From positions 35,517 to 99,516 of the forward strand of contig JAXMHO010000007.1 of assembly GCA_046346715.1 (NCBI GenBank): DNA of 64,000 nt. Reading direction: 5' to 3'. Each line of letters begins with the position of its first letter. The first letter of the stretch is position 1. The translations under genes were made by a program, and so were the position numbers. Positions 1,356 to 32,165 of the stretch are shown in pieces. The notes beneath the pieces are model-generated. The model searched no databases, was not told where the DNA came from, and was given only the letters and a program-made list of their open reading frames with translations. Source of the DNA: Verrucomicrobiota bacterium (lineage in GTDB: Bacteria > Verrucomicrobiota > Verrucomicrobiia > Limisphaerales > CAIQOK01).

Positions 1356-2539
1356 TTGGCGTCATTGCGGATGACATCAGCGGCGCGGCGGAAATCGCCG
1401 GGGTCGGCTTGCGTCATGGCTTGCGCGCCGAGGTGCTGCTGAAAGGCCGCCCCGGCAAAGGCGCCGACCTCGTCTGCATCGACACCGACTCCCGGTTCTG
1501 CTCCCCCCGCGAAGCCGCCCGCCGCACTGCCGCCGCCGCAAAAGTGCTGCACCGCGCCGGGGCAAAATGGATTTACAAGAAGACGGACTCGGTGCTGCGC
1601 GGCGAAGTCGCCGCAGAAGTTCTCGCCGTGGCAAAGGAGCTTCGCCTGTCCGCCATCCTGCTGCATCCCGCCAATCCCGGCTTCGGCCGCATTATCCGCG
1701 GCGGCAACTATTTCGTGGGCGGAAAACTTCTCCACAAGACCGAGTTCCTGCGCGACCCGGCCCATCCGCGCACCACGGCGGATGTCTGCAAGCTGCTCGA
1801 CGCCGCCGAGTCGGCATCCGTGCGCCTCGGCAAATTGAGCAAGCCCGTGGCGGCGGAAGGCATTATTATCTGCGAATCCACCTCGGCCCGGGAAGTTCGG
1901 GCCTGGGCGCGCCGCGCAACGCCCGACCTGCTGGTCGCGGGCGGCTCCGAGTTTTTCTCCGCGCTGCTGGACGTACGCCTGCCTGCCGGAAGGCGACGCA
2001 CCGGCAAAACTCCGGCGCGCGGCAAATCGCCTTCCAGGAAAGCCCCCGGCCGCGAGTTGTTCGTCTGCGGCACCACCAGCAAATCCGCGCAGGATTTCGT
2101 CCGCGGTGCGCGCCTGGCCGGAACGCCGATCTTCTCGCTGCCCGGCGAACTCGCCTGGGGCGCGGACTTCACCCGCCCGGCCATCGACATCATCAAGGGA
2201 AAGGTGCTCGCCGCGTTTGCGCATCATCCCCGTGTCATTCTCCAAACCGGCCTGCCGCCCGTGCAGGAAATTCCCGTCGCCCAGCGATTGGCCGGTTACC
2301 TCACGCAGCTCGCGGGCGTCATTCTCAAGGACTCCGCAGTCCAGCGCGTTTACGCCGAAGGCGGCGCGACCGCCGTCGAACTGGCCCGGCGCATGGGCTG
2401 GACCCGTCTGACGGTCGTCCGTGAAATCGCCCCCGGCGTCGCCACCCTCGGCGTGCCCGGAAGGTCGTCATTGCATTTGACGATCAAGCCCGGCACTTAT
2501 GTCTGGCCGAAGGAAATTCAAACGCCGTCGGACCGCTGA
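1352..2539 (+). CDS. Four-carbon acid-sugar kinase family protein (DUF1537), copy 1
   Basis: It has the N-terminus MIGVIADDISGAAEIAG and a C-terminal VYAEGGATAVELARRMG nucleotide-binding-domain style, as in DUF1537 kinases. ATG 1352 overlaps the PdxA-family stop (ATGA). Confidence 0.8.
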   Translation: MIGVIADDISGAAEIAGVGLRHGLRAEVLLKGRPGKGADLVCIDTDSRFCSPREAARRTAAAAKVLHRAGAKWIYKKTDSVLRGEVAAEVLAVAKELRLSAILLHPANPGFGRIIRGGNYFVGGKLLHKTEFLRDPAHPRTTADVCKLLDAAESASVRLGKLSKPVAAEGIIICESTSAREVRAWARRATPDLLVAGGSEFFSALLDVRLPAGRRRTGKTPARGKSPSRKAPGRELFVCGTTSKSAQDFVRGARLAGTPIFSLPGELAWGADFTRPAIDIIKGKVLAAFAHHPRVILQTGLPPVQEIPVAQRLAGYLTQLAGVILKDSAVQRVYAEGGATAVELARRMGWTRLTVVREIAPGVATLGVPGRSSLHLTIKPGTYVWPKEIQTPSDR

Positions 2540-9780: not shown

Positions 9781-9987
9781 GGTTTTGTGGGGTTTGGGAT
9801 TGGCCTTACCCTGTCACCAACGGCAGAAGCCGACGGGACGTTGAATCTGACCATGCATGATGAACACGGCTGGACTTCATAGGTTAAGGATTATGCAGGC
9901 ACCATATCAGAGTCGGCTTCCGAAGAAAAGCCAAGTGCTGCATAATAGTTTGAAAAAAACGCACCTCTCCGTCCGCGGGATTACGGA

Positions 9988-11256
9988 TTACTTGGCGGGA
10001 TGGCGTCGCCAGTAATTGGCCAGGACGGATCCGCTGACGTTCATCCACGGGCTGAAAATGGCCGCCGCCAGGCCGATGGTGCCCAGCTTGCCCATCTGGG
10101 CGGCAAGACCGGAGGCCATCGCGCCGTTTTGCAGGCCGACTTCAAACGCCACGGACCGCGCGGAGTTTTTGTCCAGCCCGCTCGCCCGGCTGAGCCAGTA
10201 GCCGAAGACATACCCCAGGGCGTTGTGAATGACCGACGCCAGGAACAGCAGCAGACCGACCTTCAGCAAATTGTCACGCCCCGCCGCCGTGGTGATCGTG
10301 GTGAAGTAAACAATGCCGGCCATCGAAGCCGCAGGCATCCATGAGTCCAGTTTGACAACCACCCGGCTGAGCCGGTGATAAACCACGCCGAAGACAATCG
10401 CCGCGCAGAAGAATCCGAAAATGCCTGCGCACACCAGCCCATCTTCGGACAGGCTTTCCTTCAGCCAGCCCCAGCCGCCGAACGCCACGAATCCCAGCCA
10501 GACCGCGCCCAAGGTTGCGAGCACCTGAACCACCGTCCGCCCCCGCGAACTCGCATGCTTGAGATAATCGTGCAGCAGCGCCGCACCGATCGGCACGATG
10601 ACGATCTTGATGATCTCCATCATCATCCCGAAGTAGGTCATCGTCACTTCCGCGCCGGCAAGCCATTTGACCCAGAACGGCGTGATGAACGGCGCGACCA
10701 CGGTGGTCATCGCCGTCACGGTGACGGACAGCGCGAGGTTGGATTTGGCGATGTAGGCCATGACGTTCGACGCCAGCCCGCTGGAACAGGAACCGATCAG
10801 GATGATTCCCGCCGCGATCTCCGGCTCGAAATGAAAGAGCTTGGTCAGTGCCAGCCCCACGAGCGGCATCACCGTGAAGTGACAGAAAATACCCACGAAC
10901 ACCCCGCGCGGATTCTTCACCACACCCGCGAAATCCTGCAGACTCATCTGCGTGCCCATCCCAAACATCACCGTCTGCACCACCAAAAGCTTGACCCATT
11001 TGTTTTGCAGGTCGAACCCGCCCCACTTGGAAAACCACTGCGGATAAATCATTGCCACGGTCACCGCCGCGATGATCCAGGCGGTGAACTGGTAGTTGCG
11101 GAACTGCTTGGAGAAGCGCAGCGCGATCGCCAGAACCACCGGACCAATCGCTGCCGCCGGTTTCCAAATTTCCGGATGACCGGTCAGCCAGGCGGGCAAA
11201 ATCATGGTGAATATCATCGCCAGCAGGACCAGTTCAAATTTCGCCACGGGAAACAT
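9988..11256 (-). CDS. Bile acid:sodium symporter (BASS/SBF-like) family transporter
   Basis: This is a polytopic membrane protein. The motif FEVGLQNGAMASGLA and the overall pattern are typical of BASS family permeases. Confidence 0.75.
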   Translation of the reverse strand: MFPVAKFELVLLAMIFTMILPAWLTGHPEIWKPAAAIGPVVLAIALRFSKQFRNYQFTAWIIAAVTVAMIYPQWFSKWGGFDLQNKWVKLLVVQTVMFGMGTQMSLQDFAGVVKNPRGVFVGIFCHFTVMPLVGLALTKLFHFEPEIAAGIILIGSCSSGLASNVMAYIAKSNLALSVTVTAMTTVVAPFITPFWVKWLAGAEVTMTYFGMMMEIIKIVIVPIGAALLHDYLKHASSRGRTVVQVLATLGAVWLGFVAFGGWGWLKESLSEDGLVCAGIFGFFCAAIVFGVVYHRLSRVVVKLDSWMPAASMAGIVYFTTITTAAGRDNLLKVGLLLFLASVIHNALGYVFGYWLSRASGLDKNSARSVAFEVGLQNGAMASGLAAQMGKLGTIGLAAAIFSPWMNVSGSVLANYWRRHPAK

Positions 11257-11280
11257 TTTAATCGGGGATTGCCACCGCCC

Positions 11281-11940
11281 TCACAGCACCGTCGCCAAAT
11301 AATCCACGGCTATGCCGGGGCTGGCAAAGATCGGCACACGTTTGTCACCCTGGGCAAGCGAATCCACCACCCGCGCCATCGAAGCCTGCGCCAGCACGAT
11401 GACCTCCACCTGCTGCGAAAGCTCCTTCAGCGCCGCTGCCACCTTGGCGTCATGCGTCGCCCCGTCACCGGCCATCAAGGCTTCAAACGCGCCCTCGACG
11501 AGCTTCGAGGTGAGTTCGATTTTCTTGTTGGCGATGGCCGCGCGGCGTTGGATCAAATCCGCCGTTGGCTCAAGCGTCGTCGAAAGCGTGGCGATGACGC
11601 CGATCCTCTTGCCAGCGGCCACGGCCTTGTCCGCCATCGGTTGGTCCACGCGCAAGACCGGCACGCCCATCAACTTCGCGCCCGCCTCCACGGCCGGCCC
11701 GATGGATGAGCAGGTCACCATGATATAATCCGCGCCCGCCAGTTCGGCGGATTCCAGATAGCCCGCCACGCGTCGGGCAATGGTCGCCGTGAGCGAACCG
11801 GCCTCACGGATGCCACGCACGAGCGAATCATCGGCGATGTTGAACACATTCACGCCCGGCAGCTTTTCCTTGCAGAGCTGGGCAAACACCGGCACCAGCG
11901 TGGCCGAAGTATGGATGAGACCGAGGGTTTTCTTTTTCAT
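11281..11940 (-). CDS. Asp/Glu/hydantoin racemase family protein
   Basis: MKKKTLGLIHTSATLVPVF...VTCSSIGP...IVLAQASM matches the two-Cys/Ser half-site pattern of the Asp/Glu racemase superfamily. ATG 11940 was chosen over the upstream GTG at 11949. Confidence 0.65.
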   Translation of the reverse strand: MKKKTLGLIHTSATLVPVFAQLCKEKLPGVNVFNIADDSLVRGIREAGSLTATIARRVAGYLESAELAGADYIMVTCSSIGPAVEAGAKLMGVPVLRVDQPMADKAVAAGKRIGVIATLSTTLEPTADLIQRRAAIANKKIELTSKLVEGAFEALMAGDGATHDAKVAAALKELSQQVEVIVLAQASMARVVDSLAQGDKRVPIFASPGIAVDYLATVL

Positions 11941-12071
11941 GGTTCGCACCCAAGCTAACGAATGGCAGTGGCGGCGTCCATGCCGGGCTGCGCCAGATTC
12001 AATTATAAAACTGCCATGCGCCGGGCGGTGAAGGATTGCGATGCACTCCGAATTCCCGCTATCGTTTTTCG

Positions 12072-13367
12072 ATGACCCAATCTGCCAGCAACAGTGCCAC
12101 GTCCGTTATTGCCGCCGGTGCCGCCAGCCGCGCCCGTTATGGCACCCTGGCTTTTGCCCTGGTCATCACGGCCGTTTCCTATCTCGACCGCGTCTGCATC
12201 TCGATGACCGGCCCGTTCATGCAGGAGGATCTCGGCCTGAGCGACAAGCAGCTTGGCTACCTCTTCAGCGCCTTTACCTTCGCCTACGCCTTGTTTGAAA
12301 TTCCCGCCGGCTGGCTGGCGGACCGGTTCGGACCAAGGATGATGCTGACCCGGGTCGTGGTGTGGTGGTCGCTGTTGACGGCCGCCACGGGATTCGCCGG
12401 CGGATTTGCCACCCTGTTTGTGGCGCGCCTGCTGTTCGGCATCGGCGAGGCGGGAATGTTTCCCGGACTCTCCCGCGTTTTCTCCCGCTGGCTGCCCGCG
12501 AGCTGGCGGGGCAACGCCTTTGGCCTCGCCATCATGACCGGATTGATCGGCGGCGCGCTCACCCAGAAGCTGACCGCCGAACTGCTCGGCACGTTTCACT
12601 GGCATTGGCGGACGGTCTTTTTCGTTTACGCCTCCACGGGCATTGTCTGGGCGGCCGGATGGTTCATCTGGTTTCGCGACGAACCCAACCAGCACCGCTC
12701 CGTCAATGAAGCCGAATTGAAGCTGATCAACGCCGCGCCGATTCCGCCCCACGCCCGCGTTCCCTGGCGGAATCTTGTGCGCAACCGTTCCCTGCTCCTG
12801 CTCTGCGGCATGTATTTCGGCGTCATCTACGGCTGGTATTTCTTCCTGACGTTTATGCCCAAGTATCTGCTTCAGGCGCGCGGCTTCGATCTCAAAACCA
12901 CCGGCTGGCTGGCCATGCTTCCGTTGCTGTGCATGGCCGCCGGCGTCGCCACCGCCGGCTGGGCCAGCGACCGCTGCATCAAACGCTTCGGGCTGCGCTG
13001 GGGTCGCCGGCTCCCGGGTTTGTGCGGACTGCCCATCGCCGCCATCGTCATCGTGGTGGCGGTGTTGATTCAGGATGCCAAAGCTTCGGCGTGTTTGTTC
13101 GCAATCGCGGCGGGGCTCGCGACGTTAGGTGTGGCACCAGGCTGGGCGGCCTGTCTCGACATCGGCGGTGCCCATGCGGGTGTCGTGACCGGCGCGATGA
13201 ACACCTTCGGCAATCTCGGCGGCACGGCGATGCCGCTGCTGATGGGCTTGTGTCTTGAACACTTGAATTCTTGGAACGTCTCCCTGCTGACGGTCGGATT
13301 TTTCTATTTGTTCTCCGCCATCTGCTGGCTGGGCATCCGAGCGGACGAACCGATTCCGGAAACCTGA
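12072..13367 (+). CDS. MFS transporter, anion:cation symporter (ACS; hexuronate/galactonate-type) family
   Basis: A 12-TM pattern is present, with LDRVCISMTGPFMQEDLGLSDKQLGYLFSAFTFAYALFEIPAGWLADRFGPR typical of ACS-family MFS. The start was trimmed to ATG 12072. Confidence 0.8.
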   Translation: MTQSASNSATSVIAAGAASRARYGTLAFALVITAVSYLDRVCISMTGPFMQEDLGLSDKQLGYLFSAFTFAYALFEIPAGWLADRFGPRMMLTRVVVWWSLLTAATGFAGGFATLFVARLLFGIGEAGMFPGLSRVFSRWLPASWRGNAFGLAIMTGLIGGALTQKLTAELLGTFHWHWRTVFFVYASTGIVWAAGWFIWFRDEPNQHRSVNEAELKLINAAPIPPHARVPWRNLVRNRSLLLLCGMYFGVIYGWYFFLTFMPKYLLQARGFDLKTTGWLAMLPLLCMAAGVATAGWASDRCIKRFGLRWGRRLPGLCGLPIAAIVIVVAVLIQDAKASACLFAIAAGLATLGVAPGWAACLDIGGAHAGVVTGAMNTFGNLGGTAMPLLMGLCLEHLNSWNVSLLTVGFFYLFSAICWLGIRADEPIPET

Positions 13368-13374
13368 ACGGCGT

Positions 13375-14742
13375 TCAGCGCGATCCCCGCCGCACGATTT
13401 CAAAATAATTCTCCGGCCCAACCTGGCCGCCCTTGAATACCACCTCACAGCCGTCCACCGGCGAGTTCGTTGCCCGCGCCCGGCACAACGGCGCGCCCGG
13501 CGTGAGCGGGGCAATCATCTCCAGCGCCTCTATTCCCATGGCCCGCGCGGCGTAACTGGACGTGTCCCCCCCGGCGATGCTGACGCGGCGGACGGAAGTT
13601 TGTTTCACCGCCTCGTGCAAAACTTTCCCCAGCGCCGAACCGAGAACTTCCGCGGTGCGCCCTTTCAATTTGGCAGCAATGCGCGGATTTGATCCCGACC
13701 TGGTGGAATGCACGATGACGCTGCGGTCAGCGAGCAACAGCTTGGCGGCTGCCTGAGCAGCGCGGGATATTTCTTGAAGGGATGTCTTGGCATCGGCCAG
13801 CAACAAAGCATTCAAGGCCACTTCCGCAAATCCATGCTTCAAAGCCCAGGTAATCTGCCCATTCGTCACTGGCGAGCAACTACCTGAGCCGATCAGAACT
13901 TGTGTAGCAGCGGACGTGAGTCCGCTGATCTTACCTCTGCTGGTTTCAGTTTGAGCCGACCCACGTCGGCTGTTGCCCGCGCTAAAAGCCGCCGCCAACG
14001 CAGCCTCAATTCCCGACGATCCCACCGAGAACAAAGGACTTTTCTTCGCCGCAGAGTCTTTCAGCAGTTCACCAATCCGCGCAATGTGCTCCGCCGTCAG
14101 CGCATCAAATAGCACCACGTCAGGCTTCTCGGCGAGTAATTGCCGGAATGCCACATGGAATTCTTTTTCCGGCAGCGAGAATTTCAGGATGTCGAACAGG
14201 GCGCTCCTTTTCTGGGTCTGCTTCGAGAGATGCAGCCGCAAGTCCGCCTCGGTCATCGGCGTGACCGGGTGTTTGCTGATGGAGGGATGGCGGTCAAGCC
14301 GGTGGATAGCGCCGGCGCTGCCGATACCGTAGCGCGCGAAGTGTTGGCCGAAGATCGTGTAGCGTCCGAGCGAAGGCGCGGCGACCAGCAACGGAATGAA
14401 CGGCGCAGGAAAAATTTTCGCCGCCACATCCATAACCTTGCCGATACTGCCGACGTGCGGCGCAGAATCGAACGTGGAACAAACTTTGTAGTGAACGTGC
14501 CGCGGCTTCAACTTCTTCAGCGCGAGCATGGCGGGCTTCAGTTCCTGTTCCATCGCCGCGGGAGCGAGCGACCGGGTCTTGCCCGCAACGCCCACGGCCT
14601 GCAGCCCGGGAAACTTCTTCAGTTGCGCTGGCGTGGGCGGCGCGATGAACAGCGCCGTGCGGATGCCCGCCAGCGACAGTTGCTCCAGCGCATCCGTCGA
14701 ACCGGTGAAGTCGTCGCCGTAAAATGTGAGGAGGAGGTTCAT
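13375..14742 (-). CDS. Four-carbon acid-sugar kinase family protein (DUF1537), copy 2
   Basis: It has MNLLLTFYGDDFTGSTDALEQL (the DDxTG motif) and a C-terminal SIAGGDTSSYAARAMG motif. ORF-track ORF 13375..14937 was trimmed to ATG 14742 because the upstream extension reads through a repeat element. Confidence 0.8.
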   Translation of the reverse strand: MNLLLTFYGDDFTGSTDALEQLSLAGIRTALFIAPPTPAQLKKFPGLQAVGVAGKTRSLAPAAMEQELKPAMLALKKLKPRHVHYKVCSTFDSAPHVGSIGKVMDVAAKIFPAPFIPLLVAAPSLGRYTIFGQHFARYGIGSAGAIHRLDRHPSISKHPVTPMTEADLRLHLSKQTQKRSALFDILKFSLPEKEFHVAFRQLLAEKPDVVLFDALTAEHIARIGELLKDSAAKKSPLFSVGSSGIEAALAAAFSAGNSRRGSAQTETSRGKISGLTSAATQVLIGSGSCSPVTNGQITWALKHGFAEVALNALLLADAKTSLQEISRAAQAAAKLLLADRSVIVHSTRSGSNPRIAAKLKGRTAEVLGSALGKVLHEAVKQTSVRRVSIAGGDTSSYAARAMGIEALEMIAPLTPGAPLCRARATNSPVDGCEVVFKGGQVGPENYFEIVRRGSR

Positions 14743-14755
14743 GCAGCGAAAATTA

Positions 14756-14879
14756 AACCACAGAGACGCAGAGACACGGAGAGAGGAATGAAAAGACGTT
14801 GGCACAAAGATAGCCAGTGGATTGCAGCGAACGGCAAACTCTGATCGGCATGCCTCTGTGTCTCTGCGTCTCTGTGGTT
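14756..14879. repeat. Inverted-repeat element (22-bp perfect arms, 80-nt spacer) of the aaccRcagagaMcgcagag repeat family, 'empty' copy
   Basis: aaccacagagacgcagagacac at 14756-14777 is the exact reverse complement of 14858-14879. The element is flanked by ttaa(a) on both outer sides. Confidence 0.85.
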
Positions 14880-15295
14880 CATTTAAATACGCCTCCAAGC
14901 ACGACGCGTTCAATTCCATCTTTGAGCAAAGGCACATTAAAATTTATCAGCAGACCTAGTAGGTTTTGGTTTAGTTTGAGGTAGGTCAACAGCTGAGCCT
15001 TGTGCACCGGCAGGATTTCTTGAACGGCCTTAAGTTCAACGATCAGTTCGTTGGCGATGATGAAATCTAGGCGATAACCGCAGTCCAGCTTCACGCCCTT
15101 GTAATCGAGCGGAAGATCAACCTGCTTTTGAAATGGAATTCCAGCCCGAGAAAGTTCATGAGCCAACGCCGCCTCATAAGCTGATTCCAATAATCCCGGT
15201 CCAAGCACACGATGCACCTCGATACAAAGACCAATGACACGCTTACTTAACTCATTCAGCGTCTTTCTTTGTGCCTCTGCGTCTCTGTGGTTCAT
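14879..15295 (-). CDS. GxxExxY protein (PD-(D/E)XK nuclease-like small protein)
   Basis: IEVHRVLGPGLLESAYEAALAHEL contains the GxxExxY motif, and LDFIIANELIVELKAV has a nuclease-like core. The region is visibly more AT-rich than its neighbours. The N-terminus MNHRDAEAQRK is encoded by the repeat. Confidence 0.8.
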   Translation of the reverse strand: MNHRDAEAQRKTLNELSKRVIGLCIEVHRVLGPGLLESAYEAALAHELSRAGIPFQKQVDLPLDYKGVKLDCGYRLDFIIANELIVELKAVQEILPVHKAQLLTYLKLNQNLLGLLINFNVPLLKDGIERVVLGGVFK

Positions 15296-15298
15296 TTA
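15273..15298. repeat. Additional copy of the repeat family (direct repeat of 14860-14885)
   Basis: ctctgcgtctctgtggttcattta occurs at both 15275-15298 and 14862-14885. It contains the overlapping stop (TGA) of the upstream gene and the ATG of the downstream reading frame. Confidence 0.8.
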
Positions 15299-16554
15299 GC
15301 TTTCCCGAACTTCTCCACAGACTTTTTCAACTCCGGATATTTCGCTGCGGCCTGTTCGAGCGTGAGTCCTTCGACCGCCGCTTCCCACCACTTTTGCAGC
15401 GAGCGCACACCGGCTGCCGGGCCATCGGGATGCGCCGCAATGCCGCCGCCCGCCATGTAGAGCAGATCAACCGTCTGGGTGCGGCGATACGTTTCGCACG
15501 CCTGTCCGCCCCATTGACCGGAGGAAACAACAGGCAAGACGGACATACCACCGAGCAACGGCTTCGCACAGGCAGCCATTGACCGCACGACCGAATCATC
15601 GCTCTCCCAAAATTTGTTCGCGATTCCGTTGACGTGGAGTTGGTCCGCGCCCGCCAACCGCCAGAGGACTTGATACGCGGGAAATTCAATGCCGAGCTGC
15701 GGATGACGATTCAACATCCCCCAGCCGTTGCGATGGCCGTGAATGGCAAGTGCACCGATGTCGCAAATCTTTTTCGCACCGCTCAAGCCGACGCTGTTGA
15801 GCGAAATCATCGCGCACGTGCCGCCGGACTTCACGATCTTCTCGTAATGCCGTTGCATCGCGTCGAGTTCGTCACTGACATTGAAGGCATACATTACCTT
15901 TTTGCCGGTGCGATCGGCGTGAGCATTGATGACGCGCATGATGGCATCGACGCGTTCATCGAACGGCGAGTGCGGCGGGTCCGCCATCAACTCGTCGTCT
16001 TTCACGAAATCAATTCCCGCCTCACAGAGAACTTTCACCATTTCCGCCGTCTGCTGCGGCGACATGCCGATACTCGGCTTGATGATCGTGCCGATGAACG
16101 GACGGCCTTCGACCTTGGTCAGCTTCCGGCAACCCGCGACGCCGAACTTCGGTCCGCGAAAATGCTGGGCGAACGACGGTGGCAGTTCGAGGTTCATCAG
16201 CTTGAGGCCGGTGAACGCGGTGATTTCGTAGAGATTGCCTTGGATGGTGGAAACGAGCGTGGGCAGGTTATAACCCATGTTCTCGATCGACCACGAGACG
16301 ACGACTTCTGCGCGTTGAAATTTTCCCGAGGCCGATCTCGCACCCGGCAAGCTCGGCGTAGCGACGGTTTCCAGCAGCGTGATCTTCTCCACGCGCGCAG
16401 CAAAGCGTTGCTTGAGTTCTTCGGTTTCTCCCGGGACAGCCACAAAGGTTCCGGAAGATTGTTCACCCGCCAGCGTGGCGGCGGCTTTCTCCACCGCGAG
16501 CGGCGTCTCGATATGATACGTGGCGAAAATGCGTTCCATGACTGATAAATTCAT
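15292..16554 (-). CDS. RuBisCO-like protein (form IV RLP)
   Basis: GTIIKPSIGMS, DFVKDDELMADPPHSPF (the KDDE metal/carbamate site) and IHGHRNGWG correspond to RuBisCO large-subunit active-site segments. ATG 16554 was chosen; alternatives are TTG 16581 and ATG 16539. Confidence 0.85.
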   Translation of the reverse strand: MNLSVMERIFATYHIETPLAVEKAAATLAGEQSSGTFVAVPGETEELKQRFAARVEKITLLETVATPSLPGARSASGKFQRAEVVVSWSIENMGYNLPTLVSTIQGNLYEITAFTGLKLMNLELPPSFAQHFRGPKFGVAGCRKLTKVEGRPFIGTIIKPSIGMSPQQTAEMVKVLCEAGIDFVKDDELMADPPHSPFDERVDAIMRVINAHADRTGKKVMYAFNVSDELDAMQRHYEKIVKSGGTCAMISLNSVGLSGAKKICDIGALAIHGHRNGWGMLNRHPQLGIEFPAYQVLWRLAGADQLHVNGIANKFWESDDSVVRSMAACAKPLLGGMSVLPVVSSGQWGGQACETYRRTQTVDLLYMAGGGIAAHPDGPAAGVRSLQKWWEAAVEGLTLEQAAAKYPELKKSVEKFGKAK

Positions 16555-16722
16555 TGTGGGGATTTCTTTTAGCGAATCCAAGCCCCTTGATTCATGGAAT
16601 TATCGCCGAAAGTGTTTTGAAAAGCGCCACCGCCTTCATTGGACTTTCCTGTCGCGCTTGCCGTGCTATTGTCACCCTCATCACCGCGGGCCAACGATGG
16701 TCGCGCCGTGGCCGAATCAATT

Positions 16723-17817
16723 ATGCGCTTAACCATCGCCCTGTTTGCCTTGACCGTCATCCTCGCCGGATGCGCCACCGCCCCCCATCACTCCCACACT
16801 CCGCCATCGGCCCTGGTGAAATCGGAATTCATTTACGAGACCGCGCCATTTCCCTCGTGTCACGCGTCCACGCTGGCCGAAACAAAATCCGGGCTGGTCG
16901 CGGCCTGGTTTGGCGGCACGGCCGAACGCAATCCCGACGTCTGCATTTATGTTTCGCTGTTGGTGAACGGCGCGTGGACCTCGCCGGTGTCGGTGGCGGA
17001 CGGCGTGGGATTTACCACCAACCGGCAGCCCACCTGGAATCCGGTGTTGTTCCAGCCGCGCCAGGGACCGTTGATGCTTTTCTACAAGGTGGGTCCGTCG
17101 CCCAAGGATTGGTGGGGCATGATGATTCAGTCCGAGGATGACGGCAAAACCTGGTCGGCGCCCGTTCGTTTGCCGGATGGCATTCTTGGTCCGATCAAAA
17201 ACAAGCCGGTGCAGCTCGCCAACGGCGACATTCTTTCCCCCACCAGCGTCGAGGGTTCGGGCGGATGGCAGGTGCACTTCGAGCGCAGCAGTGATTTGGG
17301 AAAGACCTGGACAGCCACGCCGCCGGTGAACGACGGCAAAGTGATCGGCGCAATCCAGCCCAGCCTGTTGCTCCACGGACAAAACCGTCTGCAGGCCGTG
17401 GGCCGGACGAAGAACGACAAGGTCTTTGAAGTCTGGTCCGAGGACGCCGGCAAGACCTGGGGACCGATGACGCTGCTGGATTTGCCCAACCCGAATTCCG
17501 GCACGGACGCCGTGACGCTTCGCGATGGCCGGCAGCTGCTGGTTTACAATCACAACACCCGTGACGGTGCCGGTCACAAGGGCCGCAATCCCGTCAACGT
17601 CGCCCTGTCAGAGGACGGCAAACACTGGCAGGCCGCGCTGGTGTTGGAAGATGATCCGTCCGCGCCCAACGGGTTTGCCTACCCCGCCGTCATTCAAACC
17701 GCCGACGGCCTCGTCCACATCACCTACACGTGGGAACGCAAAAAAATCAGGCACGTCGTGATTAATCCCGCGAAGCTCGACTTGAAGCCGATCGTCAATG
17801 GTGTCTGGCCAAAGTAA
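16723..17817 (+). CDS. Sialidase-like BNR/Asp-box beta-propeller glycosidase (lipoprotein)
   Basis: A lipoprotein signal is present (MRLTIALFALTVILAGC). There are four Asp-boxes: SEDDGKTW, SSDLGKTW, SEDAGKTW and SEDGKHW. Confidence 0.75.
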   Translation: MRLTIALFALTVILAGCATAPHHSHTPPSALVKSEFIYETAPFPSCHASTLAETKSGLVAAWFGGTAERNPDVCIYVSLLVNGAWTSPVSVADGVGFTTNRQPTWNPVLFQPRQGPLMLFYKVGPSPKDWWGMMIQSEDDGKTWSAPVRLPDGILGPIKNKPVQLANGDILSPTSVEGSGGWQVHFERSSDLGKTWTATPPVNDGKVIGAIQPSLLLHGQNRLQAVGRTKNDKVFEVWSEDAGKTWGPMTLLDLPNPNSGTDAVTLRDGRQLLVYNHNTRDGAGHKGRNPVNVALSEDGKHWQAALVLEDDPSAPNGFAYPAVIQTADGLVHITYTWERKKIRHVVINPAKLDLKPIVNGVWPK

Positions 17818-17833: not shown

Positions 17834-18607
17834 TCAAAACGCCTCGGCTGCGCCGCCGTCCACCGGCATCACCACGCCGCTGACGTATTTGGCCGCCGGC
17901 GACGCGAGATAAACCGCCGCCCAGCCGATGTCGTCGGGTTCACCGAACCCGCCCATCGGAATGCGCGCCATGATCTTCGCCTTGCGCGCCGGATCGCCAC
18001 TGAGAGCTTTGTCGAGCATGTCGGAGGCAATCCAGCCCGGAGCAATCGCGTTCACCCGCACACCCTGCGCGCCCCACTCGGTCGAGAGCGTGCGCACGAT
18101 GCCGACATAGGCGGACTTCGCGGCGGAATACGCCACGACGAGCGGCATGCCCATGAAGGAAACCATCGACGCCGTGAACAGGATGCAGCCGGAGCGGCGC
18201 GCCACCATGCGTTTGCCCGCCTCGCGTGTGAGGGCAAACGCGCCGAACACATGGGTCTCGATGACTTTGGCAAACTCCGCGTCGGAAGTTTCCGTCGCGG
18301 GCTTTTTCAAATGCACCCCGGCGTTGTTGACCAGAATGGAAATGGGACCGGCCAGCTTCTCCGCCTCTTCCAGCAATCCAGGGACAGAATCCAGCTTCGT
18401 CACGTCGCCCGCCAGCGCGAATGCCTGCGGGCCGAGCGCGACGCAGGCCTTGGTCAATTCCTCGCGACGACGTCCCACGAGAACAACCTTTGCGCCCGAG
18501 GCCACAAAACACTTGGCCATGCCAAAGCCCAGACCGGTGCCGCCGCCGGTGATCAGGGCGGTCTGCCCGGTGAGATTAAACGGTGAAGCAGTTCCAGAAG
18601 TTTTCAT
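17834..18607 (-). CDS. SDR family oxidoreductase (KduD/gluconate-5-dehydrogenase-like)
   Basis: It has TGGGTGLG (TGxxxGxG) and YSAAKSA (YxxxK). ATG 18607 overlaps the upstream stop (ATGA). Confidence 0.8.
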
Positions 18608-19818
18608 GCGCGGCAACCGGCGGTGAGTGAAGGTGTGTTTTGATGTTTATACATGACGAAGTATTCGCGATGGCCGAGCGCCTCCGGCTTGCTGGGTTCG
18701 CCGGCGGCGACTTTCAACAGCAGTTCGGCCAGTTCCAGCCCAGCCTGAGGCAGGCTCAGCCCGCCGGTTAAAACTCGGCCGGCATCGAAATCCATGTCGT
18801 CGGCCAGGGCCCGGAAGGTCGAGCTGTTGCCGGTGACTTTCACCAGCGGCGCAACGGGACTGCCAATCACGCTGCCGCGGCCGGTGACGAACAGCACGAT
18901 CTGCGCGCCGGCGCTGATCAAATCCATGATGCCTTCGGTGTCGTTGGGATTGGTGTAGCCAAACTGCATGAAATGCTCGTCGGGCACGCTGTCGAGAATC
19001 CACAGCCCCGGCCCGCGCGGCGACTCGGAGACGCGGATGACGCCTTGAATTGGCCGCGTGCCGGACTTGGCAAAAGCCCCGAGACTCTTTTCCTCAATGG
19101 TGGTGAGGCCGCCCGCGAAATTTCCCGGCGACACGGACCATTGCCCCACCGAACGGCAATACCGTTCCGCCTTGTCGTAGGCATCGGCGAGTTGTTTGCG
19201 GGCTTCGTCATTGGCCGCGCGCGCCAGCATGTGCCCGCGCAATCCCATCATCTCGACGGTCTCCTCAAAAATGGCGCGCCCTCCGGCGTCCACCAGCAAA
19301 TCAAAAAACGCGCCGACGGTTGGATTGCCCGCCAACCCCGACGTCCCGTCCGAACCGCCGCATTCGCAGCCGACGGTCAGGTCGGCCAACGTCATCGGCG
19401 CCCGTGGAGTTTCGCGGCGGATGTGTTCACGGAGACCGGCGACAACTTCCTTTCCCTTGGCGACGGAAGATTTCGTTCCGCCGGTCTGCTGGATGAAAAA
19501 CCATTCTGCGGGACGCCCCGACTTCCGGACCGCCTCGGCGATTTTTTCCGGCTGGGTGTATTCACAGCCGAGTCCGACCGACAGCACCGCGCCCACGTTC
19601 GGATGCCGCGCCAGCGCCAGCATCAGACGGATGGCATAGGCATTGTCATAGCAGCCGGGAAAGCCGATGACATGGACATCCTCCTCGCCGGCCGCAATCG
19701 CGTGGGCGACGTGCTGCGCGCATTCGACGGTATAAACTACGAGCACCAAGTTGCGGATACCCTTGCGACCATCAGGACGCAGGTAGCCGGACCAGGAAGT
19801 TTTCAGCAGGTCAGACAT
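18604..19818 (-). CDS. UxaA-family sugar-acid dehydratase, large (C-terminal) subunit
   Basis: [38 protein letters not shown] resembles the altronate/galactarate dehydratase (UxaA/GarD) C-domain. The start was trimmed to ATG 19818. Confidence 0.8.
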
Positions 19819-20143
19819 AGGCGGAAGTCGTGTCGGTTGGCGCGCCCGAGTGAAGATCCAAGGTGCCGGAGCGGACGTCCAAATCGCTGGCCATGTTGTG
19901 GAGATGAACCCAGGCGCCACGCGGGATGGCCTGGGTCGCATGACCGATGCGCACCCCGTATTTGATCACTGCTTCACCCTTGGCAATGTCGCGGATGGCG
20001 AGCTTGTGGCCGTGGGTGATTTTTTCCGAGGCGAAAACCTCACCGCTGGCGGCTCCGAAAATCTCGACCACCCCCGCCGGCGCGTCGTCAATCAACGTGG
20101 CGACGTTGTCTTGGGGTTGGATTTGGAAGGCGCGGGGTTTCAT
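19811..20143 (-). CDS. UxaA-family dehydratase, small N-terminal SAF-domain subunit
   Basis: [20 protein letters not shown]...[22 protein letters not shown] is typical of the SAF/UxaA N-domain. There is an 8-nt overlap with the large subunit gene. Confidence 0.75.
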
Positions 20144-20154
20144 CGGGGGATTAT

Positions 20155-20188
20155 TTAACCGCAAAGAGCGCAGAGAACGCAGAGAAAA
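20155..20188. repeat. Repeat-family arm (left arm of cargo-bearing element)
   Basis: The sequence is ttaaccgcaaagagcgcagagaacgcagagaaaa. It lies 12 nt upstream of the UxaA-small-subunit ATG. Confidence 0.75.
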
Positions 20189-20228
20189 TTCCCTTTTCAG
20201 GGCTTGCGCTAATCTTCGCTGCAAATAT

Positions 20229-20690
20229 TTAGGTTTCACCACAACAAATGGTCTTAATTTTGTTTTTTAAAAATTCCCAGGACGTGTCTGTCTGGGCAGC
20301 TAATTCAATTGGGTATCTCTCCGCGAGCTGAGGCATTGCATTAATACGACGTTCGCATTCTGCCACATCAGAAGTGTAAACCCACCACTGCCTCGTGCCG
20401 TTTTCGGTTAGAACTGCTGTAAGCACTGCAAGGAAATCATGTTCAAAGGCATCTACAAAATGGTTTTCAAAATCCTTTAGTTGACTCAATTCTTCTTCAT
20501 CGGGAATACCAGAACTGCCGTCATGCACGTATCCCCACGTGATGATCAGCAAACGGGAATAACCCGCGTAATCTGTCACGTCGCAAAATCCTTCCCTGAA
20601 TCGAAACATAAATGGTGCATTACCGTGCTTGCCTGTAATTCTAGTCCAACGATCTTGCTTCACTGCGGCGATTACTTGCTGTGACTTCAT
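20229..20690 (-). CDS. DUF695-like small protein (cargo of repeat-flanked element)
   Basis: LLIITWGY...GIPDEEELSQLKDFENHFVDAFEH...TENGTRQWWVYTSD matches my recollection of the DUF695/RraB-like pattern. The stretch is conspicuously AT-richer than its surroundings. Confidence 0.5.
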   Translation of the reverse strand: MKSQQVIAAVKQDRWTRITGKHGNAPFMFRFREGFCDVTDYAGYSRLLIITWGYVHDGSSGIPDEEELSQLKDFENHFVDAFEHDFLAVLTAVLTENGTRQWWVYTSDVAECERRINAMPQLAERYPIELAAQTDTSWEFLKNKIKTICCGET

Positions 20691-20697
20691 GGGAGAG

Positions 20698-20733
20698 TTT
20701 TCGCTTTGCGCTCTTTGCGTTCTCTGCGGTTAA
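20698..20733. repeat. Repeat-family arm (right arm, inverted relative to 20155-20188)
   Basis: Its reverse complement reads ttaaccgcagagaacgcaaagagcgcaaagcgaaaa. The TAA stop of the enolase-superfamily gene (20730-20732) lies inside the ttaa terminus. Confidence 0.75.
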
Positions 20734-21848
20734 ACCTTCGTCACCTTGTGTTCCACACACGTGCGATCAATCGCATCCCAATTCAGTTCTACGCCGATGC
20801 CGGGCTTTTGCGGAACGTGCGCCATGCCGAATTTGTCGATGGGATATTTGTCCTTCATCGGAAAACGGAACGGCTCTTCGGGAATCAGCAGCTCAAAGTA
20901 TTCGCAATTCTTGATGGCGCAGCTCACGTGCAGATTGGCGATATCCATGAAGCCCATCGTCGTGCAATGCACTTCGCAGCGCAGCCCGTGCGCCTCGGCG
21001 AGATGCGCGATCTTCAGCGTCCCGGTGACGCCGGCCTTCCACGAAACATCCGCGCGCACGATGTCCACGGCGTTGAATTGAATCGCCTGCGCCACGCCCC
21101 ACGGACCGCCACGCGTCGTCTCCGTGCCGGCAATGGGAATGTCCAACGCGGCGCAGAGCTTGGCGTATTTCGCGAGTTCGAAATCGCGGAACGGTTCTTC
21201 GAACCAATGGTAATTCAGTTTCTCCAGATCGCGCCCGACGCGAATCGCTTCTTCGAGCGAATAATCAGCCACCGGATCGGTCATCAAAACGTAATCGTCT
21301 CCAGCTGCCTCGCGCAACGCGCGGTGAATCTCGATATCTTTCCGCCACGGGCCAGGCGGATGCGCTTTGTAAGCCGGAAAACCGCGCTTCTTGTAAGCGC
21401 GCAATTGCTTCACATAATCCTCGACCTTTGGCATGAACAAACTGCTCGCATACGTCGGAAGACTCGTGCGACACGTGCCGATGAATTGATACAGCGGCAA
21501 CCCCGCGTCCTGCGCGGCGATGTCCCACAGCGCGACGTCCACCGGGCCGGGAAGATAGACCGGAAAGAACGTCAGATGCCGGTCAATCGTCCAAAGCTCG
21601 TGCCAGATCGCCTCGCGTTCCACCGGCGAACGGCCCATGACCACCGGCGCAATGTTCTCGTGCAGGTAAGCCTGCGTCACGATGCTGGAACGCGCCGCGA
21701 GCGCCGTGGCGTGGCCGGTGAGACCGGTGTCCGTGGTCAACTTCAACACGACCACGTCCCAATTCATCGGGCTGCGGCCCGTGCGCGAGGAATCGAACAA
21801 CGACTCTTGCCGCTGACAACGCCAGGTTTCAAACGAGGTGATTTTCAT
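20730..21848 (-). CDS. Enolase-superfamily (mandelate racemase/muconate lactonizing enzyme family) acid-sugar dehydratase
   Basis: The 372-aa protein begins MKITSFETW...VVLKLTTDTGLTGHA, a capping-domain start. Its length and pattern are typical of MR-subgroup dehydratases. Confidence 0.75.
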   Translation of the reverse strand: MKITSFETWRCQRQESLFDSSRTGRSPMNWDVVVLKLTTDTGLTGHATALAARSSIVTQAYLHENIAPVVMGRSPVEREAIWHELWTIDRHLTFFPVYLPGPVDVALWDIAAQDAGLPLYQFIGTCRTSLPTYASSLFMPKVEDYVKQLRAYKKRGFPAYKAHPPGPWRKDIEIHRALREAAGDDYVLMTDPVADYSLEEAIRVGRDLEKLNYHWFEEPFRDFELAKYAKLCAALDIPIAGTETTRGGPWGVAQAIQFNAVDIVRADVSWKAGVTGTLKIAHLAEAHGLRCEVHCTTMGFMDIANLHVSCAIKNCEYFELLIPEEPFRFPMKDKYPIDKFGMAHVPQKPGIGVELNWDAIDRTCVEHKVTKV

Positions 21849-21857
21849 GCTATTGAT

Positions 21858-21986
21858 TTAACTGCAAAGAACGCAAAGAGCGCAAAGAATACAATAAATA
21901 CGAACGGCTGCCTGACATCATTGCAACGCGTTGGAATCCATTTTCTTTTCCCCTTCTTTGTGTTCTCTGCGATCCCTGCGGTTAAC
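21858..21986. repeat. Inverted-repeat element of the same family, 'empty' copy (about 33-nt imperfect arms, about 63-nt spacer)
   Basis: The arms are ttaactgcaaagaacgcaaagagcgcaaagaat (21858-21890) and the reverse complement of 21954-21986, gttaaccgcagggatcgcagagaacacaaagaa. The element fills the gap between the RraA-like stop and the enolase-family start. Confidence 0.75.
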
Positions 21987-22651
21987 TAAAGAATCCCATA
22001 CTTCTTAAACGCCGCGGTGCTGCTCATGCCCGCCTCGATTTCCTTGCGGACGAGCTTTTCGCCGCGGGCCTTGGCCAGGGCGCGCTCCACCACTTCGGAC
22101 TCAACCTTCTTCGGCACGATCACAACGCCGTCCAGATCACCAAACACCAGATCACCGGGCTGGACCGTGACGGGGCCAATTTCGATCTGACAACGGAAAT
22201 CCACGACTTGGGTGCGCACGGAGGAGTCCTGGGCAAAGCGTCCGCGTGAAAAGACCGGCCAGTTTTGCTCCAGCATCTTCGGCGTGTCGCGGTGAAAGCC
22301 GTTTATGACCGCGCCGGCCGCGCCACGTTTCTTGGCGGTGGCGGTGAGGATTTCGCCCCAATAAGCGCAGCGCATTTCCCCGCCGCTGGCCAGATAGATT
22401 TCGCCGGGCTCAAGCTGGTCGAGCGCTTCGGTGAGCAGGCCGAACGGCTTCTTCTGCTTGCCGAAGACGTCGATCATCACCACCGGCATCGCGCGGCCGG
22501 TGAGTTTCATGTCGTCGCGCGCGGGCTGGATGGGCTGGGGTAGAAATTGATGCGTGAAGCCGAGGTCGTCGAGGATGTCGCCGACGACCGGCGTGTAAAG
22601 TTCACGGGTGCACAGTGAGAACAATTCGGAGTCAGATTTCCATTCGGACAT
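21986..22651 (-). CDS. RraA-family protein (4-hydroxy-4-methyl-2-oxoglutarate aldolase-like)
   Basis: MSEWKSD...[14 protein letters not shown]...LTGRAMPV...[14 protein letters not shown] is the typical RraA/HMG-aldolase fold signature. Confidence 0.7.
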
Positions 22652-28707: not shown

Positions 28708-29739
28708 CTAGTTTGCGTCCAAGAAAGCGGACACTTTGCGCTGAATCGTCCTTTCGCTGCCCGGCACGCTCAAGACGTCACACTCGCTGCCGAGCACGAA
28801 CGGATGCCCGGTGGCGCGCATCCGGCAGGACAACTCCGCCGCGAGTTCACGGACCTTTTCCAGACTCATCACGCGGTCGGAATAAAACTGCTTCGTCGGC
28901 AGGTTGCCGTAGAGCACGGTGGACCGAGGCAGCAGCGCCGCATCCTCCCATAATTTTCGCGAGCTTCCCAAACTCATCATTGCCGCGTCCAGCAGGGCAA
29001 ACCGGCTGACCATGCCATCCAGCAGTTCACCGCAGTTATGAAAAATCAGTTCCACGCCGTTTGCCGCCAGCTGGTCGCGGAGGGCAAGGTTGAACCTCAT
29101 CACATAACGCTCAAAAACATCATAGCTTTCGGCCAGCTGGTTCGGTGAGAAATAGACCTTGTTCGCCGCCGGCTCACAAAGAATGATCGCCTCTGCGCCG
29201 GCGTCCATCTGGGCTGCAAGATATTCCCGGATGGTTTGAAATGACAGCTCCAGAAGCCGTTCCACCAGGGCAACCTCATCATCTTCCGAGGCCGTCGATC
29301 CAGCCCCGGCCATGAAGACCGGCGTGATCGGGTCAGCAATCAATTGGGTCATCAAAGAAAACGGACCGATGGCGATGCCGACTGGCAGCAGATTCGTTTG
29401 CGTGGCGATGTAATTGATGCCGGCGCAGATCGCCATCATTCGTGGGGTGAGTTTGAAGGCGGGGCTCCGGCCCGGCACTTCAACAAAACGAAACGCCTCC
29501 ACCAAGGGCGGTGCCACTCCCTGAGCCAGCAGGAGCGCCTCTTTTTCCAGCTTCAGATCCATCAAGGGAAACGCCAGCGGCGTGCGAAACCGCCGAGCCG
29601 CCTCTTCCACCACCCGGCCCAGGCGCCGGCCATCAAGCACAACAGTCTCGTGGTCCGCGTGTTCGTGCAGCACCAGATGCGTGCCGATCGGCATTCGCAG
29701 CCCCGCCGAAGCAATATCGAGGAAACGCTGGCGGTTCAT
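28708..29739 (-). CDS. URO-D/MtaA-family methyltransferase (methylcobamide-type)
   Basis: MNRQRFLDIASAG...CEPAANKVYFSPNQ...IFHNCGELLDG carries a His-x-Cys zinc-ligand motif, and a later Cys occurs in GSECDV. The start was trimmed to ATG 29739, 1 nt after the corrinoid-protein stop. Confidence 0.7.
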   Translation of the reverse strand: MNRQRFLDIASAGLRMPIGTHLVLHEHADHETVVLDGRRLGRVVEEAARRFRTPLAFPLMDLKLEKEALLLAQGVAPPLVEAFRFVEVPGRSPAFKLTPRMMAICAGINYIATQTNLLPVGIAIGPFSLMTQLIADPITPVFMAGAGSTASEDDEVALVERLLELSFQTIREYLAAQMDAGAEAIILCEPAANKVYFSPNQLAESYDVFERYVMRFNLALRDQLAANGVELIFHNCGELLDGMVSRFALLDAAMMSLGSSRKLWEDAALLPRSTVLYGNLPTKQFYSDRVMSLEKVRELAAELSCRMRATGHPFVLGSECDVLSVPGSERTIQRKVSAFLDAN

Positions 29740-29740
29740 G

Positions 29741-31381: not shown

Positions 31382-31414
31382 AACGGAGTTCCAAAGTTTG
31401 CGGACCGGACAATC

Positions 31415-32155: not shown

Positions 32156-32165
32156 GCGGCGTCAA

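Follow-up and report, generated by a model that had tools for sequence, protein, structure and literature searches.

A four-gene operon joining a RuBisCO-like protein, a DUF1537 kinase and a racemase-like protein, probably for a rare acidic sugar of pectin

The apionate routes of D-apiose catabolism use two RuBisCO-like proteins (RLPs), the decarboxylase OiaX and the transcarboxylase/hydrolase OiaT; OiaC, which an earlier reading of the DNA studied here (the original prediction) had listed among the RLPs, has a xylose-isomerase fold. The OiaK/OiaX module of the oxidative D-apiose (D-apionate) pathways is said to have been worked out by Carter et al. in Nat Chem Biol in 2018, and the D-threonate pathway with DtnK and PdxA2 reportedly by Zhang et al. 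in PNAS in 2016. Here we analyse a stretch of 64,000 nucleotides from a Verrucomicrobiota bacterium (contig JAXMHO010000007.1), hereafter the window, in which an RLP gene lies upstream of a gene for a DUF1537 acid-sugar kinase. The window has a G+C content of about 60%, and among its relatives the nearest are metagenome-assembled Verrucomicrobiota genomes (Limisphaerales, subdivision 3).

We found that the RLP and kinase genes open a four-gene operon which also encodes a protein of the Asp/Glu/hydantoin racemase superfamily and a bile acid:Na+ symporter (BASS). Judged from sequence, this is an abundant, conserved and unannotated variant of the RLP and DUF1537 acid-sugar module in which feeder enzyme and transporter are both new and which is tied to the degradation of rhamnogalacturonan-II (RG-II). 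The operon probably breaks down a rare acid sugar from pectin, with aceric acid, and not apiose, as the most plausible one. In our favoured reading, to which we give a probability of about 45%, it would be a distinct relative of the OiaX/OiaK module in which a cofactor-independent isomerase replaces ApnO and L-aceric acid is the substrate.

The four-gene operon and its conservation

The genes of the operon in the window are as follows.

15292-16581, minus strand: RLP of form IV, 429 aa (RuBisCO_large); first gene, sister subfamily of OiaX
13375-14742, minus strand: DUF1537 acid-sugar kinase, OiaK-like (SBD_N 188 bits, NBD_C 111 bits); second gene
11281-11940 (open reading frame to 11949), minus strand: Asp/Glu/hydantoin-racemase-superfamily protein (PF01177, 75 bits); third gene, proposed cofactor-independent isomerase
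9988-11256, minus strand: BASS transporter, PanS-like (SBF 112 bits); fourth gene, proposed acid-sugar importer

We compared these genes with the best 80 of 568 confirmed relatives, for which one genome per species was scanned and whose RLP is 70-94% identical to that of the window. The 80 loci were examined in two ways: they were searched with the window proteins, and all their open reading frames (ORFs) were clustered without prior assumptions. The homologue searches left 8000 RLP candidates and 7114 racemase-family ones within the E-value limits, and the top matches listed come from environmental metagenomes.

The RLP, kinase, racemase-like and BASS genes form a co-directional set in the same order in about 65 of the 80 loci. 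Gene by gene, the RLP is present in 80, the DUF1537 kinase in 67, the 220-aa racemase-like protein in 68 and BASS in 66, and most loci missing an operon gene are truncated contigs. The kinase follows the RLP in around 67 loci, and BASS comes after the racemase-like gene in 66. Carriers are found among the Verrucomicrobiota, among Opitutae-class Verrucomicrobiota and in many Bacteroidota (Pedobacter, Mucilaginibacter, Pontibacter, Flectobacillus, Dyadobacter, Echinicola, Chitinophagaceae), together with one genome of the Phycisphaerae (Planctomycetota). The operon is widespread in soil and freshwater bacteria and has never been specifically annotated. For example, on a Rufibacter plasmid copy the Prokaryotic Genome Annotation Pipeline (PGAP) gives all four genes generic names ('RuBisCO large subunit family', 'four-carbon acid sugar kinase', 'Asp/Glu racemase family' and 'bile acid:sodium symporter').

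In the window the operon is broken twice, by a GxxExxY cassette and by an opposite-strand gene of the major facilitator superfamily (MFS).

12036-13367, plus strand: MFS transporter of the anion:cation symporter type (MFS_1 185 bits)
14879-15295, minus strand: GxxExxY / PD-(D/E)XK cassette ORF, not a pathway member (PDDEXK_3 142 bits, TIGR04256 149 bits)
14854-14885 and 15267-15298 (direct), 14751-14785 (inverted): repeats bounding the cassette, from a repeat search and sequence inspection

The original prediction had rightly placed the RLP upstream of the kinase on the same strand with an inserted cassette between them, and the MFS and BASS genes between this pair and a PdxA gene set at the start of the window. 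It had missed that BASS and the racemase-like gene belong to the RLP-kinase operon. BASS itself scores 214 bits against the PanS model (cut-off 400).

The MFS gene sits exactly between the kinase and the racemase-like gene, its stop codon 7 nt from that of the kinase, and has no homologue in any of the 80 loci; its score for the D-galactonate-transporter subfamily is 268 against a cut-off of 395. By this comparison the MFS gene is a lineage-specific insertion that splits the operon of the window. Therefore, either transcription of the racemase-BASS half starts in the 95-nt divergent spacer (11941-12035) or the two parts of the operon function separately in this organism. A promoter and terminator scan of 9800-16900 gave no excess over shuffled sequence and is uninformative on the co-transcription of the two halves.

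The cassette ORF (138 aa) stands exactly at the RLP stop codon, which its ATG overlaps (ATGA). The direct repeats around it, 32 nt long and 94% identical, hold the start codon and first codons of the cassette itself (ATGAACCACAGAGACGCAGAG, encoding MNHRDAE), and the inverted copy makes a long hairpin ahead of the kinase gene. Since most orthologous loci are without the cassette and only two (L002 and L007) have it, at the identical site, it is a genuine insertion. It resembles a small element, mobile or recombining, that permits read-through of the operon.

Relationship to described RLPs, kinases and racemases

The RLP matches the N- and C-terminal domains of the RuBisCO large subunit over its full length (PF00016, 204 bits; PF02788, 30 bits). 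The KDDE carbamate/metal site and the HGHR motif reported in the original prediction are present, within DFVKDDEL (K194, D196, E197) and HGHRNG (H281, H283, R284), and these residues are invariant in the 80 orthologues. The invariant positions K168, K194, D196, E197, H281, H316 and K323 are the equivalents of RuBisCO K175, K201, D203, E204, H294, H327 and K334, and comprise the carbamate/metal site and the loop-6 lysine. The equivalent of RuBisCO Lys177 is Ser170, again in all 80 orthologues, and 40% of the RLP positions are at least 98% conserved across these several phyla. With this catalytic residue substituted, sugar-catabolic neighbours and neither a Calvin-Benson-Bassham (CBB) context nor a small subunit, the protein belongs to form IV.

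Of the NCBIfam models, OiaX (NF042437) scores best for the RLP, with 516 bits (509 for the Rufibacter RLP). Both values are under the equivalog cut-off of 700, compared to 785 for a PGAP-named Rhizobium OiaX; other proteobacterial RLP subgroups reach 409-412. The top match among solved structures is PDB 3NWR, a Burkholderia RLP (425 bits, aligned full length). Neighbour-joining gives a tight, monophyletic window clade with 44-53% identity to each proteobacterial subgroup sampled, and those subgroups are as distant from each other as from the window clade. Identity to the PGAP-named oiaX products of Rhizobium and Sinorhizobium plasmids is 46-49%, and the clade joins Rhizobium OiaX, weakly. The Roseibium-type RLP, which is linked to ApnO without isomerases and is possibly of the OiaT type, is 49% identical.

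The active-site columns give mixed signals as to whether the chemistry would be OiaX-like or OiaT-like. The H327 equivalent is His in the window clade and in the non-OiaX groups and Gln in Rhizobium OiaX; the segments QWGGQAPETY and KxWExDxS are common to the window clade and OiaX.

The kinase ORF spans 13375-14937, and alignment of homologues places the true start at 14742 (MNLLLTFYGDDF) and not at the first ATG at 14937. Like the second DUF1537 kinase of the window, it has the SBD_N (PF07005) and NBD_C (PF17042) pair. The best model is OiaK (NF042436), at 398 bits against a cut-off of 700, followed by 3-oxo-tetronate kinase (172 bits, cut-off 350) and the D-threonate kinase DtnK (73 bits, cut-off 450). 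The OiaK cut-off is too narrow to decide membership, because the kinases beside a genuine OiaX (Rhizobium, 473 bits) and beside ApnO (431 bits) also fall below it. The kinases next to the RLP in four proteobacterial comparison loci (L082, L083, L084 and L086) are 35-39% identical to that of the window. As far as the sequences go, the RLP and the kinase form a subfamily of their own, closest to OiaX/OiaK of the apionate pathway and far from the RLPs of methionine salvage.

The RLP is followed by the DUF1537 kinase on one strand in both the window operon and the OiaK/OiaX module. The RLPs align over their full length, with the common motifs KP[SAN], DF[IV]KDDE, HxHRNG, NG(I/L)xxK, SSGQ and GGGI. 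Both systems are linked to a rare branched pectin sugar, and in the window, too, the kinase presumably phosphorylates an alpha-hydroxy-beta-keto acid at the CH2OH adjoining the ketone. Measured against the proteobacterial proteins sampled, identity reaches only 48-50% for the RLP and 35-39% for the kinase. The window operon, however, has no ApnO, apiose dehydrogenase, apiose-binding ABC transporter or LerI/DerI isomerases, and has the racemase-superfamily gene and the BASS anion symporter instead. The window type is found in RG-II loci of Bacteroidota, Verrucomicrobiota and Planctomycetota, whereas OiaK/OiaX is found on proteobacterial sugar-acid islands.

ApnO is the protein of PDB 5T57, a Rossmann-fold relative of F420:NADP oxidoreductases (10.1101/2020.08.24.261826), and not a PdxA-family enzyme as the original prediction had assumed. 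In three proteobacterial clusters of the apiose type (L082, L084 and L085), the neighbour of the RLP and kinase is a 275-aa Rossmann and PGDH_C protein. The copy in L082, the locus with a PGAP-named oiaX, has 5T57 as its best PDB match (449 bits), and the copies in the other two are 66-73% identical to it. Further genes of the clusters encode a ribose-type binding protein, an ABC transporter and a Gfo/Idh/MocA dehydrogenase, and in none of the three loci did we find a PdxA-family gene. We looked for ApnO by tblastn with two ApnO-type queries and found no homologue in the window (E<=10) or within 10 kb of the operon in the 80 loci (E<=0.01). L082 also has genes for an L-erythrulose-1-phosphate isomerase (TIM-type) and a D-erythrulose-4-phosphate isomerase (RpiB-type). 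Neither has a homologue in the window and the TIM-type isomerase has none in the 80 loci, where the RpiB-type query gave only a partial match, in L019 (37% over 87 residues).

Other proteobacterial RLP-DUF1537 clusters (Roseibium, Caballeronia, R. etli NXC12, Neorhizobium and PDB 3NWR) have the same core with a variable feeder and transporter; those of Roseibium and Caballeronia have ApnO and no isomerases and are possibly of the OiaT type. The feeders of the proteobacterial clusters are NAD(P)-dependent, being either ApnO or a short-chain dehydrogenase/reductase (SDR), whereas that of the window operon would be a cofactor-independent protein of racemase fold. For example, an R. etli NXC12 plasmid (L083, 10004-14669) combines RLP and DUF1537 with an SDR dehydrogenase and a KdgT permease, and a Neorhizobium locus (L086, 3626-10624) combines them with a glyoxalase-fold protein, an SDR and an ABC transporter. 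This comparison suggests that the RLP and DUF1537 core is modular and that the feeder enzyme defines the substrate. Several more uncharacterised acid-sugar substrates probably exist for the pair.

The third gene product (219 or 222 aa, depending on the start) matched no NCBIfam equivalog. Its orthologues in the 68 loci are 62-92% identical and have 79 near-invariant residues, including the motifs TCSSIG and LAQASM. An AlphaFold (AF2) model (pLDDT 84) gave a racemase fold in Foldseek, with probability 1.0 and a TM-score of 0.65-0.8, to hydantoin, aspartate, glutamate and allantoin racemases at 14-22% identity. Compared with PF01177 proteins such as 2EQ5, 1JFL, arylmalonate decarboxylase and maleate isomerase, it has the same fold and keeps the first catalytic Cys (TCSS) as its one Cys, C80 in the 222-aa numbering. 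The second catalytic Cys, found in LGCTGM of hydantoin racemase, is replaced by Gln188 in LAQASM. This replacement is invariant in the 68 orthologues and is also found in homologues from other bacteria at 44-52% identity. The protein is not a classical two-base racemase, because its second catalytic Cys is replaced by Gln. Further differences from the PF01177 racemases are an invariant set of its own (H-T, R-x-D, T-T, H-D) and its occurrence in sugar-catabolic operons. A role of the arylmalonate-decarboxylase type was set aside; it needs a gem-dicarboxylate, and there is no plausible one derived from RG-II.

Distant homologues of the racemase-like gene occur in several settings, two of them in sugar operons. 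The Deinococcus gene is flanked by GH38 and a class II fructose-bisphosphate-type aldolase, and that of Croceibacterium adjoins an MFS transporter and a glycosidase with a DUF5060/apiosidase domain (GH140-type). The Rhizobium homologues stand in FAD-oxidoreductase and ABC-transporter contexts, which give no functional hint.

Pectin setting and the candidate substrate

The setting of the operon is that of an RG-II-type pectin locus, as far as gene content can tell, and here the original prediction of a pectin locus stands. Wherever the four-gene set occurs in the 80 loci, it is surrounded by genes for pectin degradation of the RG-II type. Besides the operon, the window encodes a GH78 rhamnosidase, GH127, GH31, GH43-like and BNR/sialidase-like proteins, a DUF6298 protein, a second dihydrodipicolinate synthase (DHDPS)-family protein, an altronate/galactarate-dehydratase-like enzyme, an enolase-superfamily dehydratase and an RraA-like aldolase. 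The genes most often found around the operon in the related loci are GH127, GH2, GH106, GH78, DUF5703, a BT_1020-like propeller and a SASA esterase. These families presumably match, for the largest part, the RG-II degradome of Bacteroides thetaiotaomicron.

The glycoside hydrolase GH127 is of particular interest here. Among the 69 loci that retain upstream sequence, on which our counts of upstream neighbours rest, 20 have a co-directional GH127 gene as the immediate upstream neighbour of the RLP, at a distance of -3 to 199 nt. Considering loci with enough flank, these are 19 of 37 in Bacteroidota and 1 of 6 in the Opitutae class. The RLP-adjacent GH127 matches PDB 5MQO with 771 bits, compared to at most 375 for characterised beta-L-arabinofuranosidases. 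The window has a GH127 of the same type, with at most 380 bits for the beta-L-arabinofuranosidases:

48800-50818, minus strand: GH127 (Pfam), 5MQO type (5MQO 677 bits); candidate source of the operon substrate

BT1003 is the GH127 aceric-acid hydrolase of RG-II chain B (PMC10850190, PMC13501991). The chain-B trisaccharide is aceric acid-rhamnose-apiose (AceA-Rha-Api). The upstream neighbours of the RLP in subdivision-3 Verrucomicrobia are a divergent GH2, GH78, or a co-directional protein with an FGE-sulfatase domain (PF03781). The latter stands directly upstream of the RLP in eight loci (L012, L013, L019, L022, L025, L026, L027 and L033). It has 270-330 aa, lies about 1 kb upstream on the same strand and might be an additional lineage-specific member of the pathway.

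L-aceric acid is 3-C-carboxy-5-deoxy-L-xylose, a branched carboxy-sugar found only in RG-II. We consider it the leading candidate because its 2-ketose isomer is the C-methyl homologue of 3-oxo-isoapionate: keto-aceric acid is HOCH2-CO-C(OH)(COO-)-CH(OH)CH3, and 3-oxo-isoapionate is HOCH2-CO-C(OH)(COO-)-CH2OH. In the proposed route, the acidic sugar would be freed from RG-II in the periplasm and imported by BASS. The racemase-like enzyme would then isomerise it without redox to an alpha-hydroxy-beta-keto acid with a terminal CH2OH next to the ketone, and the kinase would phosphorylate this CH2OH. Such a substrate would enter already at the oxidation level of the beta-keto acid and would require isomerisation alone; the conserved operon core, as defined by ORF clustering in the 80 loci, contains no dehydrogenase, lactonase or ApnO.

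The RLP would act last, on the beta-keto-acid phosphate, by decarboxylation as in OiaX or by transcarboxylation and hydrolysis as in OiaT. The OiaX-like outcome would be a 5-deoxy-pentulose-1-phosphate, to be cleaved to dihydroxyacetone phosphate (DHAP) and acetaldehyde. The OiaT-like outcome would be 3-phosphoglycerate and lactate, which would make the four genes self-sufficient. The operon thereby offers four candidate genes for one acid unique to RG-II and a prediction that is chemically explicit.

Several observations weigh against L-aceric acid as the substrate. Some concern the chemistry. An aldose-ketose isomerase from the Asp/Glu racemase superfamily would, to our knowledge, be without precedent, and aceric acid lacks the proton alpha to the carboxylate which the usual chemistry of this superfamily requires. 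No 5-deoxy-pentulose-1-phosphate aldolase is conserved near the operon in the 80 loci. Three Flectobacillus loci (L049, L061 and L063) have the RLP, the racemase-like gene and BASS and no kinase within 10 kb; their kinase slot (11348-14300) is filled by a BT_1020-like beta-propeller (sialidase-like carbohydrate-binding module) and a GH43-like gene.

Other points concern the link to the sugar itself. That 5MQO is BT1003 is our assumption from the deposition series. GH127 is not adjacent to the operon in subdivision-3 Verrucomicrobia, being 32 kb away in the window, and GH78 is the upstream neighbour in L024, L029 and L066. A GH78 (BT1001) of B. thetaiotaomicron reportedly frees apiose from Rha-Api. 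Adjacency cannot cleanly separate aceric acid from apiose, because GH127 and GH78 act in turn on AceA-Rha-Api. The Croceibacterium homologue beside the GH140-type apiosidase-domain gene could also point to apiose. Finally, in the literature searched, neither aceric acid nor RG-II nor racemase-family genes are connected with RLP or DUF1537, and no pathway is described for aceric acid or for the other acid unique to RG-II, Dha (3-deoxy-D-lyxo-heptulosaric acid).

These points bear on three other explanations of the operon. The one nearest to the original prediction is a D-apionate (apiose) route, in which 3-oxo-isoapionate is made elsewhere or apionate is imported by BASS, the racemase-like protein being an accessory. 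OiaX and OiaK are indeed the top-scoring curated families, the window clade exceeds the other proteobacterial subgroups on the OiaX model, and the weak grouping with Rhizobium OiaX and the two common segments point in the same direction, as do the status of apiose as an RG-II sugar, the three loci with GH78 upstream and the Croceibacterium neighbourhood. Nevertheless, ApnO is absent from the window and from within 10 kb of the operon in the 80 loci, whereas it is adjacent in three of three proteobacterial apiose-type clusters. The conserved core is also without an apiose dehydrogenase, lactonase or LerI/DerI isomerases, and the PdxA gene once taken for ApnO comes from a different family and is part of a separate module. 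Moreover, the RLP and the kinase both score below the equivalog cut-offs, the His327 equivalent differs from that of Rhizobium OiaX, and a dedicated anion importer is a poor fit for a neutral sugar. We thus regard the apionate route as unlikely. From the original prediction, the part that proposed a related branched acid sugar stands, and the part that proposed apionate via a PdxA-type ApnO does not.

An unbranched four-carbon route would better suit the fold of the third enzyme, and we consider it somewhat less likely still. The racemase-like enzyme would here convert a tetruronate or 2-oxo-tetronate to 3-oxo-tetronate and back, the kinase would form 3-oxo-tetronate-4-phosphate, and the RLP would replace OtnC, a class II aldolase-type decarboxylase, to give DHAP and CO2. 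Unbranched 2-hydroxy-3-oxo acids have the proton alpha to the carboxylate that racemase chemistry needs and that branched ones lack, the four genes would be a self-contained route to DHAP, and the operon lies directly beside a tetronate-type module in L025, L033 and L072. The kinase matches the 3-oxo-tetronate kinase model as well, but its OiaK score is more than twice as high (398 vs 172). In addition, no free tetruronate or 2-oxo-tetronate is known as a pectin product that would need an importer, and the route would be redundant, since the parallel tetronate module is found in the same loci. It is highly improbable, in our view, that the RLP is an enolase or isomerase of the methionine-salvage or 5-deoxyribose type (MtnW-like or DeepYkr-like) or a true RuBisCO, in a carbohydrate locus by coincidence. 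The general RuBisCO_large fold, the carbamate lysine and the metal ligands are retained, which speaks for this reading. However, the MtnW models TIGR03332 and NF007095 give 125 and 169 bits against cut-offs of 514 and 409, and we rejected the role of MtnW, the DK-MTP-1-P enolase. A CO2-fixing RuBisCO was likewise rejected, with form II/III models at 104-221 bits against cut-offs of 438-497 (rubisco_III 221, cut-off 497). Ser stands at the Lys177 position, the surroundings contain no Mtn or CBB genes, and the strict linkage to the DUF1537 kinase and the transporter holds over three phyla. The original prediction had named a methionine-salvage clade, or kinases with no RLP linkage, as what would speak against it, and neither is what we see. 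Metagenomic surveys may miscount such an RLP as a marker of carbon fixation.

The PdxA module and other genes of the window

The plus-strand genes at the start of the window are the following.

1-312, plus strand: C-terminal part of a DHDPS-family aldolase, truncated at the window edge (57% identity with the C-terminus of the L025 DHDPS)
309-1355, plus strand: PdxA-family dehydrogenase, PdxA2-like, not ApnO (PF04166, 328 bits)
1352-2539, plus strand: second DUF1537 kinase, divergent, weakly DtnK-like (SBD_N 126 bits, NBD_C 31 bits)

The coupling of the PdxA gene to the second kinase, as claimed in the original prediction, is confirmed by an ATGA overlap of stop and start. The DHDPS gene had been overlooked, and its stop codon TGA (310-312) overlaps the PdxA ATG (309-311). 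The PdxA gene product matches PDB 4JQP, 2HI1 and 6E85 with 258, 251 and 236 bits, compared to 154 for E. coli PdxA (1PS6). It passes the generic pdxA model TIGR00557 (339 vs 290) and is below the cut-off of the NF002891 equivalog (282 vs 583). By these scores, it is closer to the solved D-threonate-4-phosphate dehydrogenases (PdxA2) than to the housekeeping PdxA. The second kinase has DtnK as its best model (119 bits, cut-off 450), reaches 87 bits for 3-oxo-tetronate kinase and does not match OiaK.

The same genes recur in other genomes. A module in the order sodium:solute symporter (SSF; not in every case), iron-type alcohol dehydrogenase (FeADH), DHDPS, PdxA and DUF1537 is conserved in two Verrucomicrobia (L025, 14677-20730, and L033) and in a member of the Chitinophagaceae (L072, 9915-15756), and the Phycisphaerae locus L030 has FeADH, DHDPS and PdxA before the contig ends. 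In L025 and L033, the RLP operon is directly followed by this module, symporter included. Based on this arrangement, the PdxA gene and the second kinase are part of a separate DHDPS, PdxA2-like and DUF1537 module and not of the RLP route, and the assignment of the PdxA gene to an apionate route is not upheld. PdxA as ApnO was rejected, being of another family than 5T57. A PdxA and DUF1537 pair should therefore not be read as a signature of apionate catabolism.

The D-threonate pathway likewise couples a PdxA-family gene to a DUF1537 kinase. The window proteins are far below the equivalog cut-offs given above for both members, and the pair is embedded in the larger module, of which we know no description. 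The module probably ends in D-threonate, judging by its gene content, and it could serve to degrade Dha. The DHDPS-family enzyme would cleave Dha by an aldol reaction to pyruvate and a four-carbon uronate, and the alcohol dehydrogenase would reduce the uronate to what, on paper only, the D-lyxo configuration makes D-threonate. The second kinase would then phosphorylate D-threonate and the PdxA2-like enzyme would convert the product to DHAP and CO2.

The joint proposal, an L-aceric acid pathway in the RLP operon with a Dha pathway as its companion module, is more tentative than the aceric acid assignment on its own. If it is true, the two modules would close two of the remaining gaps in the microbial mineralisation of pectin and would provide a natural source of D-threonate.

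Two further gene sets of the window lie apart from these modules. The minus-strand cluster at 17834-22651, upstream of the RLP, encodes a KduD-like SDR, a protein of the altronate/galactarate-dehydratase family, DUF695, an MR_MLE dehydratase and an RraA-like aldolase. It is not conserved beside the operon in other genomes, and it is probably, from its families, a non-phosphorylative route for deoxy-sugars or uronates, for example for L-fucose or L-rhamnose acids.

The other set, at 28708-34552 and beside GH31 and an MFS_2 sugar transporter, is of the corrinoid methyltransferase type.

28708-29811: URO-D/MtaA-like protein
29741-30448: B12-binding protein
30482-31381, plus strand: homocysteine-S-methyltransferase-like protein
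31415-32155: AraC regulator
32166-33803: RACo corrinoid activase
33800-34552: DUF1638 gene

These genes have no homologue in the 80 related loci. Given the families that it combines, the set might act as an O-demethylase for the 2-O-methyl-fucose or 2-O-methyl-xylose of RG-II.

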